A DNA stretch of 64,000 nt, taken from Escherichia coli O157:H7 str. 2011EL-2287. GTDB lineage: Bacteria; Pseudomonadota; Gammaproteobacteria; Enterobacterales; Enterobacteriaceae. The DNA lies in NCBI GenBank assembly GCA_000614405.2, contig GCA_000614405.2_3612.1, one strand, 5' to 3'. The notes beneath the pieces are model-generated. The model did no database searches and had not been told where the DNA came from. It saw nothing but the letters and a program-made list of their open reading frames with translations. The number at the start of each line of letters is the position of its first letter. Position 1 is the stretch's first letter. Shown piece by piece: positions 14 through 44,985 of the stretch. The position numbers and the translations under genes are program-made.

Positions 14-2077
14 ATGGCATCTGCATACAACCGTTTCGGTGAGCCAAACCCGAAAGCAACTAAGTATAAAAGTGGGGGAAGTGTGAAACGAGACTATCGT
101 GATGAAAAAGAAGTTGAAACTGTAGAGACTGTTTTAGAAAATACTAAAATTGTCCCTGTCCCACAACAAAATATCGGTCTGATGGCTGCACAATATTTTG
201 GTGTGCGATCAGCATTGTCCCAAGAAGACGGTGTGACAGTCACTGCAACATATTTCCCATATTACGACCGCTACGGAAATCTGTCTGGTTTCAAAAAGCG
301 TGACTGGACTATTCCTAAAGAGCAAAGGGGCCATTTCTCCGTTGTTGGCATCGTAAAGGCCAACTCCCAGATGTTTGGTCAAAAGCTGTGTGCATCTTCC
401 AACAACCGTAAGCAGATTAACGTTTGTGAGGGAGAAGGTGATGTTATTGCAGCATGGCAGGCTGCATATCAGATACAAGTAAAAGGGATTCTCACCAACG
501 CTAAAGCCCCGGCAAAGGTGAAGCAGTGGGCTAAAGAGGTCCAGGACGGGATCGACGCAGTTATCAACGGTGGTGATCTGGCAGGAAAACCCTGCCTGCC
601 TTTTGTTGGAATTAACTGTGGATGTGCAAACGCAGTAGATACTTTTGCAAACAATGAGAAGTTTATCCGTAGCTATGGAACAGTTGTGCTGGCAATGGAT
701 AACGATGCAGCTAACGAGGTAGAGAAGCAAAAACACGTCATTAAAGGTGTTGAGGCCACGCACAATATCGCAGCATTTTTGATGGCTGATAACGTTTACC
801 ACGTAGAATACCCTGGTGAAGTAAATGACCCTGACGGTGTAAAAGATATCCGAGACATGCTGAAGGCTAAAAAGCTGGAAGATATTGTCAACATGTTCCG
901 GCACCCTGTTAAATATGTGCCTGATGCTGTGTCGGATTTAGAAGACTTCTCTATCGAGTCTTTGCGGAAAAAGACTTCCAACGGGGTAGATATCAGTGCA
1001 GAGTTCCCAAAACTGCAAAAAATGCTAAAAGGCTTGCACAAAGGGACACTCGTAATGCTTACAGGTCCATCAGGCGGCGGTAAAACAACCGTGGCTAAAA
1101 AACTGGAACACTGTATTGCAAGATACCTAATGGACCCGACATGCCCGAAGGCCGATGACTATGAAGAGGATGATCGTCTATGCATGATCCATCTTGAGGA
1201 GGATCCAGAGGAAGCAATTAACTCCTTGTATGCAAACCAGTTAGGGTTTGATGTTAAAGAGTTTGTTGAAGATCCTAGCCAGTTTTTAACTGATCAAGAA
1301 CATGCAGAGATTCACCAATCATGGGCAAAAGCTGGAAAAATCAAAGTGTTCAAACATTTCGGGTCTATTCCAGTGGACGAGTTGATTACCAAGCTTAAGC
1401 AAATGGTCTGCCTATACCATTGTCGCTATATTGTGCTGGATCACCTGTCTATGGTAATTTCAGGGCTTAATGTTAAAGATGAGCGAAAAGAACTGGACAT
1501 GGCTATGACTCAGCTGGCTGCGTTTTGTAAGCAGTTTAACGTGTTTATCTTGGTGATCGCTCACCTCAAACGTACAGAGATTGTGCCTCCTAAGGACAAG
1601 GATGGTAACCCATTACCTTTCTGGTATCCTGTGCGAAAAGAGAATTTGCGAGGATCGGCTGGGCTTGAACAGTTGAGTTGGGTAGTCATAGGTGTCGAGG
1701 CCGAAGAAATGGTGGATCGTTCTCGTGGGCGTGTCCGTCTGGTAGGTCTTAAAAACCGTCCAGCAAAAACTTTAGGTATTGCTGACACTTTAGTTATGGA
1801 CCCACATACAGGTAAGTTCCATGATGCCAGTAATTGGTACTGGGACAAAGAAATGCAGATGTTTACAGACGGAGAAGGTGGGGAGATTGTTTGGAGACCT
1901 CAGGCCATGTTTGAGGACCAAGAGCATGCAGTTGTAGAAACACCTATGGGCAAGGTTGTAGCCGATAAGGTTGTAACTCCTACTATTAAGCCTGTTGACA
2001 CGCAGGAAGACCTCCAGTACGATGATCCATCCTCTGATCCGGTCCCCGGTTTTGAGGATGATGAAACACCTTTTTAA
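14..2077 (+). CDS. DNA primase-helicase (TOPRIM primase domain fused to DnaB/T7 gp4-like helicase); frame is open to the window edge so the N-terminus may lie upstream
   Basis: 687-aa ORF; primase motifs NVCEGEGD and VLAMDNDAAN; Walker A GPSGGGKTT; acidic C-terminal tail ending EDDETPF; GGAAG SD before ATG at 14. Confidence 0.85.
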   Translation: MASAYNRFGEPNPKATKYKSGGSVKRDYRDEKEVETVETVLENTKIVPVPQQNIGLMAAQYFGVRSALSQEDGVTVTATYFPYYDRYGNLSGFKKRDWTIPKEQRGHFSVVGIVKANSQMFGQKLCASSNNRKQINVCEGEGDVIAAWQAAYQIQVKGILTNAKAPAKVKQWAKEVQDGIDAVINGGDLAGKPCLPFVGINCGCANAVDTFANNEKFIRSYGTVVLAMDNDAANEVEKQKHVIKGVEATHNIAAFLMADNVYHVEYPGEVNDPDGVKDIRDMLKAKKLEDIVNMFRHPVKYVPDAVSDLEDFSIESLRKKTSNGVDISAEFPKLQKMLKGLHKGTLVMLTGPSGGGKTTVAKKLEHCIARYLMDPTCPKADDYEEDDRLCMIHLEEDPEEAINSLYANQLGFDVKEFVEDPSQFLTDQEHAEIHQSWAKAGKIKVFKHFGSIPVDELITKLKQMVCLYHCRYIVLDHLSMVISGLNVKDERKELDMAMTQLAAFCKQFNVFILVIAHLKRTEIVPPKDKDGNPLPFWYPVRKENLRGSAGLEQLSWVVIGVEAEEMVDRSRGRVRLVGLKNRPAKTLGIADTLVMDPHTGKFHDASNWYWDKEMQMFTDGEGGEIVWRPQAMFEDQEHAVVETPMGKVVADKVVTPTIKPVDTQEDLQYDDPSSDPVPGFEDDETPF

Positions 2078-41780: not shown

Positions 41781-41954
41781 TGTTGCACCCCCTCTTCATC
41801 CTCATGATGTTTCTTTTCACGCTTGTGTTTTTTCTTGAGCTCAAGCGCAATTTCTTTTTTGTACGCCTTCTTCAAGGCTTTTTTAGCCATTTGGCACCTC
41901 CTCTGCTTTCATTTTACGATAATTATACCTATCTAAACAAAGCTTTGTCAACAG

Positions 41955-42428
41955 CTAGTCTACCTGGACCCAACCGCCTGATACTTTTTTAAACATTCTT
42001 TGGTTATCACTGCCTCGGAACGGTTTCTTGGTTGGTAAATCTTTTACATACTTACCGTCAATGATGATATCAGCCAGTTTAAGAACATCACTAGAGATAT
42101 GGTCAAATGTGAACCCAGTATATACAAGAATAGTTTTCTTGTCACCAAATTTTTCCTTAATTTTCTCCATCAGGCTAATAATATCTGGCTCATTATAGTA
42201 TGCTAAGGGTTCTCCACCCAGCAGAGAGATACCGCACACAGACGGGTTATCTAAATCTGACAAGATTTTTTGCAAGTCTTCTTCAGTAAACTCTCTTCCC
42301 TTATCTTTTGACCAAAATGCCTGATTAAAGCAACCAGGGCAAGCGTGTGGGCACCCAGATACCCACAAGGCAGTTCTAATACCTGGCCCTTCGGTGTAAG
42401 ATATTTCTGTGTATCCGGCAATATTCAT
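41955..42428 (-). CDS. nrdG: anaerobic ribonucleotide reductase activating protein (radical SAM)
   Basis: CPHACPGC radical-SAM cysteine motif; 157 aa; adjacent to nrdD. Confidence 0.8.
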   Translation of the reverse strand: MNIAGYTEISYTEGPGIRTALWVSGCPHACPGCFNQAFWSKDKGREFTEEDLQKILSDLDNPSVCGISLLGGEPLAYYNEPDIISLMEKIKEKFGDKKTILVYTGFTFDHISSDVLKLADIIIDGKYVKDLPTKKPFRGSDNQRMFKKVSGGWVQVD

Positions 42429-42541
42429 AGATACTCCGCATCACATTTAGGGCAATGCCAAATAAAATCGTCCAGTGCCTTGCACCAACGAAGATTGCAA
42501 CGACAACCACACTTGCAAATTTTATAAATACCTGTAGACAT
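42425..42541 (-). CDS. small cysteine-rich protein (38 aa, 8 Cys) translationally coupled to nrdG
   Basis: ORF below cutoff; strong SD AGGAGG 6 nt before ATG; stop overlaps nrdG start (ATGA); CKCGCRC...C...CPKC. Confidence 0.5.
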   Translation of the reverse strand: MSTGIYKICKCGCRCNLRWCKALDDFIWHCPKCDAEYL

Positions 42542-42604
42542 ACTGTACCTCCTAGCTCACTGTGTGTCAATAATATGCCACATCCTTGTGGCTTTTGTCA
42601 AGTA

Positions 42605-43867
42605 TCAGCAACCACAACTTCCGTAGTGCTTAACCCGTTCTATAACTTCCGCTTGCTTACCTTTATTGTAAGGACGGGAGTTTGGACTAGACAGGTACCC
42701 GGATACACGTCTGATCACACTGATCGTTCCCTCTTCATGGTTTCCACACTCTGGGCATACGAATCCCTTAGCTGTTGCACTGAACTCACCAGAGAAACCA
42801 CACTTAAGACATTTATCCACAGGCTGGTTGATACCAAAATACATAATGTGTTTATATCCAAAATCAACAAGAGCTTCCAAAGCATCTAAGTTGTTTTTCA
42901 GATTTGGTGTCTCTACGTATCCGATGTTGCCACCAGAGGAGATCATAGCAAAACCTTCCTCATACGCCCACTTATCAAAAGGAGAGCTATTGATCCATAC
43001 TGGCTGATGGAAACTGTTGGTGAGATATTCATGCTCGTGCTTCAACACTTCAGGATATTCACGATCCAGACAGGTTGCAGCTTTATAGCATAGACTCTCA
43101 GAAGGGGTGCCGTACAAGCTAAACGCTAGTCTACTTTCCTTCTTGTATCGCTCACAAGCATCTCTCATGTGCTGAAGTATTCCAAGAGCTAAAGCCTTGT
43201 CACCCTCCCTGCCCAAAATCTGACAGGTTTCATACACACCAATATACCCAATACTGATGGAAGCGTACCCGTCATAGAAGAGTTTATCAATACTCTCTTC
43301 AGGATCCAGGCGAGCAAGAGCGCCTTCACACCACATGATAGGGTTCTGCCCTGCCTTTGTTCCTTTTAGACGGTTAACCCTTACAAGGTGAGCCTCGTAT
43401 GCAAGATCCAGGTATTCGTCAAGAACTGCAAAGAAATCAACACCTTCCGTTTTAGCTTTTGCCGCAATCATTGGCAGGTTAAGGCTAACAACGCCTAAGT
43501 TAAATCTGCCAAGGTATTTCTCCTCGCCTGTTTCCAAGTCATTATATTTGCTAAGAAAACTCCGGCAACCCATGCTCGTTACTTTACCATCTGTCGAGCC
43601 TGTCACTTTACGATTTAGTGGAACAGAAACAAAGTCAGGATAAATCCGCTCTGCAGAGCATTCCAGAGCTAATCGTTTCAAATCATAGTTAGGATCTCCA
43701 GGGTTCATGTTGACACCCTCTTCTAGGAAGAACAGCACTTTAGGGAACACAGGTGTGATACGTTCTTCACCAAGACCCATTTTGTGGACTTTCAAGTAAT
43801 TTTTGGTAATCATTCTACCAAAGACCGAGGTATCCAGTCCTAAACTTAATGTGATAAAAGGGGTTTG
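42605..43867 (-). CDS. nrdD: anaerobic ribonucleoside-triphosphate reductase, exon 2 (C-terminal part with glycyl-radical and Zn-ribbon motifs)
   Basis: Frame open upstream of first ATG (43813) back to 43867, encoding QTPFITLSLGLDTS; glycyl radical motif RRVSGYL; CxxC...CxxC ribbon. Confidence 0.8.
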   Translation of the reverse strand, partial: QTPFITLSLGLDTSVFGRMITKNYLKVHKMGLGEERITPVFPKVLFFLEEGVNMNPGDPNYDLKRLALECSAERIYPDFVSVPLNRKVTGSTDGKVTSMGCRSFLSKYNDLETGEEKYLGRFNLGVVSLNLPMIAAKAKTEGVDFFAVLDEYLDLAYEAHLVRVNRLKGTKAGQNPIMWCEGALARLDPEESIDKLFYDGYASISIGYIGVYETCQILGREGDKALALGILQHMRDACERYKKESRLAFSLYGTPSESLCYKAATCLDREYPEVLKHEHEYLTNSFHQPVWINSSPFDKWAYEEGFAMISSGGNIGYVETPNLKNNLDALEALVDFGYKHIMYFGINQPVDKCLKCGFSGEFSATAKGFVCPECGNHEEGTISVIRRVSGYLSSPNSRPYNKGKQAEVIERVKHYGSCGC

Positions 43868-44124
43868 CGGTCCCCACCCTTATGTTTCCACAAGGCCAGA
43901 CTATCTCTTGCCTGAAATCACACCGTGTGATTCTTAATCAGACCTCTGCGTTTCGGAATCTTCCATAATCCCTACACCAAAAGGTTAGTCGTTACAACCG
44001 CCTCACTCCTTGTGAAGCTAGTCACGGGATTGGCATAGCTTGAGCCTTAGCGTTCCCCGTTAGCCAGCGATCAGCTGACCCCTCATACTGAGGTTAGCAG
44101 AGTTTTAAAACGGCCAGTTTGTTA
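43868..44124 (-). ncRNA. putative group I intron interrupting nrdD
   Basis: 257-nt gap between nrdD halves; follows U of GGU, ends in G; minus-strand segments resemble group I core elements (AAGAGAUAGUCUGG, AACGACUAACC). Confidence 0.55.
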
Positions 44125-44985
44125 ACCGTTGACAGAAGTTAACGTATTGATTTGATAGAGCAAAGTCTGCATGCTGTCAAATACGTCTTTATCTGTCATT
44201 TGCATTGCAACAGTCTCAGCATCTGGCAACCAATGTTCTTGGCAAAATTTAAGGTTCTTCTCATAGGTCGCTTCAGCATACTGTGCCAGATAATGATCAA
44301 TATGGCTCATAGTCTGACCCCCATATTGAGCACTAGCTACTGCACTAGAGATTTGGCTAAGGATTGTTGTTGCAACCCCTATTGACTTCGGCTTACTGAC
44401 ATGGGCGTTACCAATGTTGAATCCGTTTTCCAACATATCTGGATAATTTACCAAACAACAGTTTGTTAACGGACTGATCAAGTAGTCAAGATCATGCACA
44501 TGGATGAAGCCTTTATTGTGCTCTTCTGAGACACGGTCTGGCAGGATCTGTGTTGATGCAAGGTGTTTGCTAAGGATGCCTGCAAGCAGGTCACGATGAG
44601 TGTGTACATGATTGGTAGGCTTATTTGCGTTTTCTTTTGTAAATTCATCACAAGTGCGATCCAAGAAGCCACTAATATCTGCAAGCAGTTTTCCACCTGC
44701 CTCTCTGTTATTATCTCTTGTCTGCCTATACTGGATGTATTCTCTGGCTGCACATTTTAAACCCATATCCATAAGAGCGTCTTCAACAAGGATATGGATA
44801 TTTTTTACAGAGATCGTGCACTGGTCGATTGGTAGATTGTTAGCAACAACTTCATTAACCGCGCAGGCGATCCGGTAAGCTTCTTCTTCAGTATGTCCAG
44901 ACTCAAGTAAGGCGGACTCTGCCGCCTTGATCACCTTAATTCCGTTATAGAACTCTTCTCTACCGTCCCGTTTTACAACTTTCAC
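44122..44985 (-). CDS. nrdD: anaerobic ribonucleoside-triphosphate reductase, exon 1 (N-terminal part; ORF as read includes intron-encoded stop, exon end about 44125)
   Basis: 287-aa ORF ending ...YQINTLTSVNG, a conserved NrdD motif that continues as QTPF in exon 2. Confidence 0.8.
   Translation of the reverse strand: MKVVKRDGREEFYNGIKVIKAAESALLESGHTEEEAYRIACAVNEVVANNLPIDQCTISVKNIHILVEDALMDMGLKCAAREYIQYRQTRDNNREAGGKLLADISGFLDRTCDEFTKENANKPTNHVHTHRDLLAGILSKHLASTQILPDRVSEEHNKGFIHVHDLDYLISPLTNCCLVNYPDMLENGFNIGNAHVSKPKSIGVATTILSQISSAVASAQYGGQTMSHIDHYLAQYAEATYEKNLKFCQEHWLPDAETVAMQMTDKDVFDSMQTLLYQINTLTSVNG

Follow-up and report, generated by a model that had tools for sequence, protein, structure and literature searches.

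Phage Mu Com is a zinc-ribbon translational activator whose gene lies upstream of mom and overlaps it. We analysed a short reading frame with a similar arrangement, here called the mini-ORF, in a 64,000-nt stretch of DNA (the window) from an Escherichia coli O157:H7 assembly. Like com, the mini-ORF encodes a small protein, for which a zinc ribbon is predicted, and overlaps the start of the next gene. Unlike com, it has a downstream gene that differs by context, and it survives uncoupled in the Vequintavirus A51.2.

Stand-alone zinc-ribbon microproteins are a second point of reference. Members of the mini-protein family are similar to them in size (36-54 aa). With Rpb9/TFIIS-type ribbons, Thermus ZifS (PDB 8yoz) and the haloarchaeal CPxCG-type zinc finger protein of PDB 8q5b, the mini-protein shares two Cys knuckles about 18 residues apart and, by prediction, a three-stranded antiparallel sheet. 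However, it has seven invariant Cys rather than four, its first knuckle is CxC in the window allele, it has no significant sequence or profile similarity to any of them, and it is limited to E. coli phages. A further zinc ribbon is encoded in the same operon, 100 nt upstream of the mini-ORF. This is the C-terminal Zn(Cys)4 ribbon of NrdD, which has a like CxxCG ... CPxCG pattern, although the hairpin is four residues shorter.

The mini-ORF between nrdD and nrdG

The window derives from an rV5-like E. coli myophage (Vequintavirus). Its nrd region matches 122 phage records at 93-99% identity, and the matches that we inspected are rV5-like Escherichia myophages (Vequintavirus), barring 19 labelled "Campylobacter phage". 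Those 19 records match the nrd region at an identity of at least 90%.

The features of the locus are collected in Table 1. The initial annotation had described an ORF with a strong Shine-Dalgarno sequence and a stop codon overlapping the nrdG start, and all of these elements are seen on the minus strand. Its placement between nrdD and nrdG also stands, given the Pfam matches on either side. Farther upstream of nrdD lie a glutaredoxin gene and nrdB/nrdA. The mini-ORF begins with ATG at 42541-42539, ends with TGA at 42427-42425 and translates as MSTGIYKICKCGCRCNLRWCKALDDFIWHCPKCDAEYL. Across it, the minus strand reads GCTAGGAGGTACAGT-ATG-TCT…GAG-TAT-CTA-TGA-ATATTGCC. Eight Cys had been counted at first, but the peptide contains seven (positions 9, 11, 13, 15, 20, 30 and 33) and one His. 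Among the window's 144 non-overlapping ORFs (35 aa or longer), none is as Cys-rich: the mini-ORF has 18.4% Cys and the runner-up 10.8%.

Table 1. Positions and supporting evidence for the mini-ORF and adjoining features of the window
Feature	Coordinates	Strand	Evidence
38-aa, 7-Cys mini-protein CDS (PHROG 20137), including TGA	42425..42541	minus	ORF, translation, PHROG match, purifying selection
Shine-Dalgarno AGGAGG	42548..42553	minus	direct reading; 6-nt spacer (TACAGT) to mini-ORF ATG
ATGA junction, mini-ORF TGA over nrdG ATG (42428-42426)	42425..42428	minus	sequence reading
nrdG (class III RNR activase, radical SAM; 157 aa), downstream of mini-ORF	41955..42428	minus	Pfam Fer4_12 9.4e-43, Radical_SAM 7.6e-10
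nrdD 3' exon, upstream of mini-ORF	42605..43877	minus	Pfam NRDD 6.8e-106, Gly_radical 4.6e-23; ORF call spans 42605-43813, end at 43877 inferred via intron match
Hairpin GCCACA-AGGA-UGUGGC in 63-nt nrdD/mini-ORF spacer	42577..42592	minus	consensus scan only

The ATGA overlap is a routine, generic junction type in this genome. It occurs at 13 of the 102 same-strand junctions in the window, and overlaps of any type occur at 29. The spacer between nrdD and the mini-ORF gave no sign of a structured RNA leader, since its fold was no better than that of shuffled sequences (z -0.47), the hairpin notwithstanding. This hairpin is retained in rV5-type relatives and lost where a homing-endonuclease-like gene parts nrdD from the mini-ORF. 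It is overlapped by a sigma70-like TTGACA-18-CATATT match (42601 to 42572, from a consensus scan only). Sigma70-like sites, likewise consensus matches only, lie on either side of the mini-ORF.

The ORF had been called unannotated, which holds for the ORF track of the initial annotation and for nothing wider, because many related genomes in GenBank and RefSeq already list it as a CDS. In AlexBoehm, bov10K2 and FFH2 it is a "hypothetical protein", and in RefSeq a "ribonucleotide reductase". The identical peptide has several NCBI accessions, among them hypothetical protein AGM12497.1 / AHN83696.1, and was seen on 201 contigs. Clustering at 90% groups it with others into 46 members, and each of the 15 listed is 38 aa long. 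It matches PHROG 20137, labelled 'ribonucleotide reductase', over the full profile (E 1.8e-31; residues 1-38 on profile positions 1-38 of 38). Source names for the peptide range from hypothetical protein through RNR to HTH regulator.

Searches of Pfam, NCBIfam and PDB sequences returned no match between the mini-protein and any RNR component. The PHROG 20137 label looks borrowed from adjacent genes; no RNR subunit is similar to the peptide. Databases also call it "ribonucleotide reductase" or "(putative) anaerobic ribonucleoside-triphosphate reductase", names that seem to have been assigned by neighbourhood alone and that our analysis corrects. The mini-ORF is catalogued but uncharacterised. 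The paper on the genome of rV5 (PMC3606486) says nothing of it. For the CRISPRi-ART fitness screens the phage was SUSP1 (138 CDS), and the text of that paper contains neither rV5 nor Vequintavirus. Our literature search found no transcriptome or Ribo-seq study of any Vequintavirus.

Selection, family breadth and predicted fold

A chance ORF, or a decayed and functionless remnant such as a homing-endonuclease zinc finger, might look like this one. The mini-ORF is very short and has no family annotation except a PHROG. The nrdD-nrdG junction is a landing site of homing-endonuclease-like genes: typing phage 14 and A51.2 carry T5orf172-type genes there, and T-even phages carry seg/mob genes. Occasional copies are damaged, as in Alma (a C-terminal frameshift) and P0014 (a fusion or truncation). 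We weighed this explanation against a codon alignment of 12 distinct alleles, which were drawn from genomes of Vequintavirus, from a pair of divergent relatives of 136 kb and from four copies in podophages. Pairwise pN/pS across the 12 alleles was 0.05-0.22, and variable columns numbered 10, 4 and 23 at codon positions 1, 2 and 3, a strong third-position bias. The window type differs from that of podophage ACG-C91 by 10 synonymous and 4 non-synonymous changes (pS 0.58, pN 0.05), and comparison with L007 gave a pS of 0.82 and a pN of 0.06. All seven Cys codons toggle between TGT and TGC and nothing else, and the Cys are invariant in every allele despite synonymous divergence of up to about 0.8.

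Other observations also count against a remnant. A Shine-Dalgarno sequence (AGGAGG, AAGGAG, TAGGAG or GAGGA) is kept ahead of the mini-ORF in all contexts where it is found, and the mini-ORF is maintained in two unrelated phage lineages. By tblastn, at least 80% of its length is covered in 121 phage records. Purifying selection on the mini-protein is strong. Judged from these comparisons, a chance ORF is effectively excluded, and we regard a functionless origin of either kind as scarcely credible. The mini-ORF is a real, strongly conserved gene of a tiny Cys-rich, probably zinc-binding protein.

The core, [VI]CK(x)CGCxCNLRWCKxLDDxIWxCPxCxxEYL, is fixed. The N-terminus is variable, with 36-, 38- and 41-aa forms and 53-54-aa forms that carry a Lys/Glu-rich extension. 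Several alleles replace His29 with Tyr, so His29 is not a conserved ligand.

The family is narrow. A word-indexed search of 5.8 billion proteins placed 14 clusters in it, and an exhaustive HMMER profile search of 1.84 billion representatives returned its members together with one spurious 248-aa tandem-repeat protein that shares LRWC. Scanning bacterial and archaeal genomes, one per species for 185,579 species, recovered zero copies of the mini-protein. The IMG/VR and metagenome scan added only Vequintavirus-like contigs (five extra ones from metagenomes), ACG-C91 itself and one chance match. We rejected this last match, a metagenomic alignment at "48% identity", as it runs out of frame within a high-GC bacterial gene. 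The Pfam scan of the mini-protein (E up to 1) gave no family at all, NCBIfam gave nothing below E 0.5, and PADLOC, which covers anti-phage defence families, gave no match. Taken together, these searches indicate an orphan family whose members occur only in E. coli phages, namely the rV5-like myophages and a small number of Vectrevirus podophages.

The initial annotation had suggested a metal-binding mini-protein, and this suggestion gains indirect support from the seven invariant Cys, two zinc-knuckle motifs and a ribbon-like AlphaFold2 model. The first knuckle is CxCG (C-K-C-G) in the window allele, one residue shorter than the CxxCG (C-K-[DH]-C-G) of the 41- and 53-54-aa relatives. The second, C30-P-x-C33 (CPxC), is invariant, so the sequence contains both knuckles of a zinc ribbon. 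AlphaFold2 predicted, with only moderate confidence (mean pLDDT 70), a three-stranded sheet (strands 16-20, 25-30 and 35-37); the alignment behind this model is shallow, with 13 sequences and an Neff of about 1.2. In Foldseek comparisons with the PDB, the best matches of this model were Rpb9 zinc ribbons, ZifS and a Nudix hydrolase zinc ribbon (TM 0.69-0.75, rmsd 1.1-1.4 A over 32-34 residues, E at least 0.34); none of these matches is statistically significant (E > 0.3), which is expected of a peptide of only 38 residues. Its viral structural neighbours are small uncharacterised zinc-ribbon proteins. A PDB profile search matched at the level of motifs only, to a haloarchaeal 'small CPxCG-related zinc finger protein' (E 0.12) and to the eL43 knuckle IWHCPKC. 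The model suggests that the mini-protein is zinc-ribbon-like, and probably a stand-alone zinc-ribbon microprotein.

We considered other Cys-rich folds and rejected them. Rubredoxins have about 50 aa, a CxxCG ... CPxCG pattern and an aromatic core. For the mini-protein, there was no Pfam family and no rubredoxin in the PDB profile search, and the sole rubredoxin-like fold match ranked 33rd (TM 0.48). An SmtA/BmtA metallothionein had been suggested by the SmtA pattern CxCxxCxCN ... CxxxC. The hhalign probability for this relationship was 1.2%, there was no Pfam hit, and SmtA was absent from the PDB sequence and fold lists. Derivation from, or mimicry of, the C-terminal zinc ribbon of NrdD was also set aside, because the resemblance is generic knuckle similarity (hhalign probability 10.8%).

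In the predicted fold, Cys9/Cys11 and Cys30/Cys33 would hold one Zn(II) on the three-stranded sheet. The invariant Cys 13, 15 and 20 may then form either a second metal site or a binding or contact surface. A bolder proposal is that a second metal centre, which might be redox-active or of the iron-sulfur type, is built from these three Cys and perhaps also from the invariant Asp24/Asp25. In that case the peptide would represent a new kind of phage factor for tuning the supply of deoxynucleotides, through class III RNR activation (phage or host NrdDG) or by neutralising a host regulator or a dNTP-depleting defence enzyme. If true, this would account for the siting of the mini-ORF next to genes of nucleotide metabolism in two phage groups that are unrelated, but we consider it decidedly unlikely.

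Changing contexts of the mini-ORF

A 36-aa copy of the mini-protein, 80% identical in amino acids, is encoded by the Vectrevirus podophage ACG-C91 and by metagenomic Vectrevirus contigs. It lies between a DUF3310 (T7-gp1.7-like) nucleotide kinase gene and a DNA ligase gene, at a locus without nrdDG. The kinase stop falls one base before the ATG of the mini-ORF, and the stop of the mini-ORF overlaps the ligase start as ATGA.

The same kinase/ligase junction is empty in LL11, carries an unrelated 57-aa ORF in vB_EcoP_B, and in K1E holds a different 38-aa 4-Cys zinc ribbon, MTCPNCGSEETEHVVMSDTYHFYFCHSCDTTIEEEEAV. The K1E protein has the slot, the size and the stop/start overlap with ligase in common with the mini-protein. 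Its architecture, CxxCG-x17-CxxC, also places 18 residues between the inner Cys, as in the mini-protein. However, it lacks the three extra Cys and has an acidic tail. Homology between these two slot-mates was rejected, as hhalign aligned one knuckle only, with a probability of 36%.

At the right-hand junction, the starts of nrdG and ligase share ATGAATAT, and both proteins begin MNI…. This shared stretch is consistent with microhomology-mediated transfer. With junctions that are empty or hold other small genes in close relatives, the comparison indicates that the mini-ORF has moved horizontally between myophage and podophage lineages. On this evidence it looks like a portable accessory gene, not a part of a reductase.

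The context also varies among nrdDG-bearing phages. In practically every Vequintavirus genome, and also in the divergent L007 and L016, the mini-ORF is found between nrdD and nrdG. Of the other phages with nrdDG that we examined, the nearest are phi92 and the Phapecoctavirus phiWec181; in both, the stop of nrdD directly overlaps the start of nrdG (TTGA), with no ORF between. The phi92 annotation cites gp142 and gp143 of PVP-SE1, consecutive gene numbers, as its nrdD and nrdG homologues.

A51.2 presents a further arrangement. Here, a T5orf172-type gene separates nrdD from the mini-ORF, which is 95% identical, has its own AAGGAGG and ends in TAA, uncoupled from nrdG. It is followed by 150 nt and then by a 78-aa ORF (PHROG 3249), and it is this gene that is coupled to nrdG. 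The nrdG of A51.2 is only 52% identical to that of the window. Two nrdG allele classes, at about 52% identity to each other, circulate in Vequintavirus.

These contexts bear on a Com-like explanation, in which a zinc-ribbon protein, or its translation alone, controls the gene that overlaps its stop. In both unrelated contexts, the stop of the mini-ORF overlaps the start of the next gene, and its invariant C-terminal codons GCG-GAG place GGAG 5 nt ahead of the downstream ATG. An ancestral direct coupling of nrdD to nrdG would also have been replaced by coupling through a mini-ORF with a strong Shine-Dalgarno sequence. Yet pure coupling does not explain amino-acid-level selection over the whole Cys core, and the downstream mRNAs (nrdG and ligase) have just ATGAATAT in common. 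The mini-ORF of A51.2 is intact although the next gene lies at a distance and is not nrdG. The Pfam scan matched no family, hence not the Com zinc-ribbon family, and the structure of the leader RNA is not unusual. We therefore hold a Com-like device to be very unlikely.

Relation to NrdD and NrdG and a proposed role

The initial annotation had proposed that the mini-protein acts with the anaerobic reductase or its activase. As a class III RNR accessory factor, it would bind NrdG or NrdD, of phage or host, and supply, protect or regulate a metal site or an activation step. Such a role would fit the siting between nrdD and nrdG in Vequintavirus, L007 and L016, and the apparent translational coupling to nrdG in the window. 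The seven Cys resemble metal sites, and NrdD itself has a C-terminal zinc ribbon that aligns with the mini-protein, if weakly. E. coli possesses its own NrdDG, which podophages could exploit. Because the host supplies both proteins, a podophage without nrdDG is still compatible with an NrdDG-directed role.

If the mini-protein were an RNR component, it should follow nrdDG. By tblastn, it was found in about 121 Vequintavirus records and one podophage, out of 2,145 phage records with an nrdG homologue, and in none of the roughly 2,000 other nrdG-bearing phage records. It should also change along with its partner. A51.2 keeps 95% identity in the mini-ORF despite a different nrdG allele and the loss of coupling, and in L007 and L016 the core of the mini-protein is 87.5% identical, compared with 52-56% for NrdG. 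These genome comparisons speak against an RNR component: there is no consistent co-occurrence across nrdDG lineages, no exclusivity to nrdDG and no co-evolution with NrdG.

Further points go against an accessory factor of RNR. In Vectrevirus the mini-ORF is coupled to DNA ligase, and the ATGA overlap with nrdG is of the routine kind. No RNR component was matched in the Pfam, NCBIfam and PDB sequence searches. By established redox chemistry, a Cys4 centre of the rubredoxin type would presumably also be much too oxidising for the reduction of a radical-SAM [4Fe-4S] cluster. The proposed partnership is not supported, given the absence of the mini-ORF at the phi92/Phapecoctavirus junction, the uncoupled copy in A51.2 and the ligase-coupled copy in Vectrevirus. 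From these genome comparisons, the link of the mini-protein to NrdD/NrdG appears weak, and we judge a role as an RNR accessory factor to be unlikely.

The reading we favour is that of a self-contained, horizontally mobile zinc-ribbon microprotein that is expressed with its host operon and acts as a host-modulating or counter-defence accessory factor. As a whole package, we consider this somewhat probable. The mini-gene would be transcribed with the early/middle nucleotide-metabolism and replication operon that hosts the insertion. Terminating ribosomes would hand over to the next gene, nrdG here and DNA ligase in the podophages. The mini-protein may be a small binding module whose target, a host protein or else a nucleic acid, is present whenever E. 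coli is infected. It would then serve as a host-modulating or counter-defence factor and not as a dedicated subunit or cofactor of NrdD/NrdG. Its position between nrdD and nrdG would reflect insertion into a tightly coupled junction, with no functional partnership.

Most of the uncertainty in this package lies in the host-directed step, which we infer from the variable junction and horizontal transfer only. Variable junctions are the usual home of host-takeover and counter-defence genes. We found no similarity between the mini-protein and known anti-defence or host-takeover proteins. Two observations count against a host-directed factor: the neighbours in both contexts are nucleotide or DNA-metabolism enzymes, and within Vequintavirus the mini-ORF is almost always at the nrdD-nrdG position. 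A role of the mini-protein in dNTP supply is conceivable.

If the favoured reading is right, the locus does not hold an overlooked reductase subunit but a cleanly defined, uncharacterised phage microprotein. What is unusual about it is the set of seven invariant Cys and the cassette-like mobility, and nothing else. Because it sits in such variable junctions, the mini-protein is a cheap candidate for experimental study.

The nrdD gene upstream showed variation of its own. The NrdD C-terminus of rV5-type phages reads …YGSC[GS]C, unlike that of phi92. This Cys-rich tail (…YGSCGC) does not strictly co-occur with the mini-ORF, and we rejected a tie of the two, as L007 has the ORF and an NrdD that ends in KHFH. 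In the window, nrdD is split by a 257-nt insertion at 43878-44134, whose match to an Rfam group I intron is sub-threshold, at 29.4 bits (E 1e-4) where the gathering score is 50. Intron-less relatives are shorter by exactly 257 nt, and other relatives have HNH or GIY-YIG genes at this position.

Mobile genes and insertions at nrdD

T5orf172-type genes with repeated CxxC modules separate nrdD from the mini-ORF, a 38-aa frame with 7 Cys, in some genomes. These junction genes are probably homing endonucleases. Since they have inserted here, the nrdD-nrdG junction is a landing site for mobile genes. The junction of T-even phages likewise hosts mobile genes (segD, segH and genes annotated 'homing endonuclease').

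When the insertion that splits nrdD was compared to Rfam, a group I intron match was obtained below threshold (29.4 bits against a gathering score of 50; E 1e-4). The nrdD region is shorter by exactly 257 nt in JES2013, Pr121LW and typing phage 4, and HNH or GIY-YIG endonuclease genes occupy the place of the insertion in FFH2 and SophiaRose. BASEL records annotate nrdD as a joined CDS.

Coordinates of features in the window and in related phage loci
Feature	Sequence	Position	Strand	Remark
sigma70 consensus TTGACA-18 nt-TATAAT	window	41922-41951	-	12/12 perfect; directly downstream of nrdG
NrdD C-terminus	window	42605-42625	-	Cys-rich tail
nrdD exons	window	about 44135-44985 and 42605-43877	-	flank 257-nt insertion
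nrdD insertion	window	43878-44134	-	257 nt, ORF-less
T5orf172-type gene	L005 (O157 typing phage 14)	279-1439		between nrdD and mini-ORF
T5orf172-type gene	L012 (phage A51.2)	36-647		between nrdD and mini-ORF
nrdG, compared alleles	L012; window	1201-1674; 41955-42428		
4-Cys zinc ribbon	L017 (K1E)	799-915		in kinase/ligase slot
57-aa ORF (PHROG 15259)	L018 (vB_EcoP_B)	799-972		in kinase/ligase slot
Empty kinase/ligase junction	L019 (LL11)	about 797-799		

Divergent nrdG alleles and damaged mini-ORFs

Within Vequintavirus and close relatives, nrdG exists as two highly divergent alleles with about 52% amino acid identity. These were compared between A51.2 and the window, and also in L007 and L016, two divergent relatives that carry the mini-ORF. 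Despite their divergent nrdG, L007 and L016 encode NrdD proteins 82-87% identical to that of the window; this comparison covers those two loci, as the A51.2 sequence used stops short of nrdD. The pattern suggests that recombination has exchanged the activase gene. In A51.2, a 78-aa ORF (PHROG 3249) is coupled to the divergent allele.

Damaged mini-ORF alleles are rare. In phage Alma (P0003) a frameshift past CPECDA yields a 61-aa product, and in an ENA contig (P0014) the first 20 mini-peptide residues are fused to the C-terminus of a 78-aa A51.2-type ORF. Therefore, loss of the mini-ORF is tolerated at least occasionally.

NrdD ends in …KHYGSC[GS]C in rV5-type phages, in KHF or KHL in phi92 and Phapecoctavirus, in …GDCCSIY in L016 and in KHFH in L007. 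Across these phages, the Cys-rich tail and the mini-ORF do not strictly go together.

The Vectrevirus slot and neighboring observations

Vectrevirus podophages have a variable cassette slot between their nucleotide kinase and DNA ligase genes, for which four states were found: empty, the 7-Cys peptide, an unrelated 4-Cys zinc ribbon or the PHROG 15259 ORF. The stop of every occupant overlaps the ligase start.

The sigma70 site in the window is followed by a 37-aa ORF (PHROG 7670), a 116-aa ORF (PHROG 7650) and a phoH-like gene.

Nineteen GenBank 'Campylobacter phage' records (MG0656xx) match the nrd region at no less than 90% identity (C2: 95.6%), and 17 of them give Campylobacter jejuni as host. 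Several of them encode the mini-peptide at 95-100% identity. Mislabelled or contaminated isolates are the probable source of these matches.
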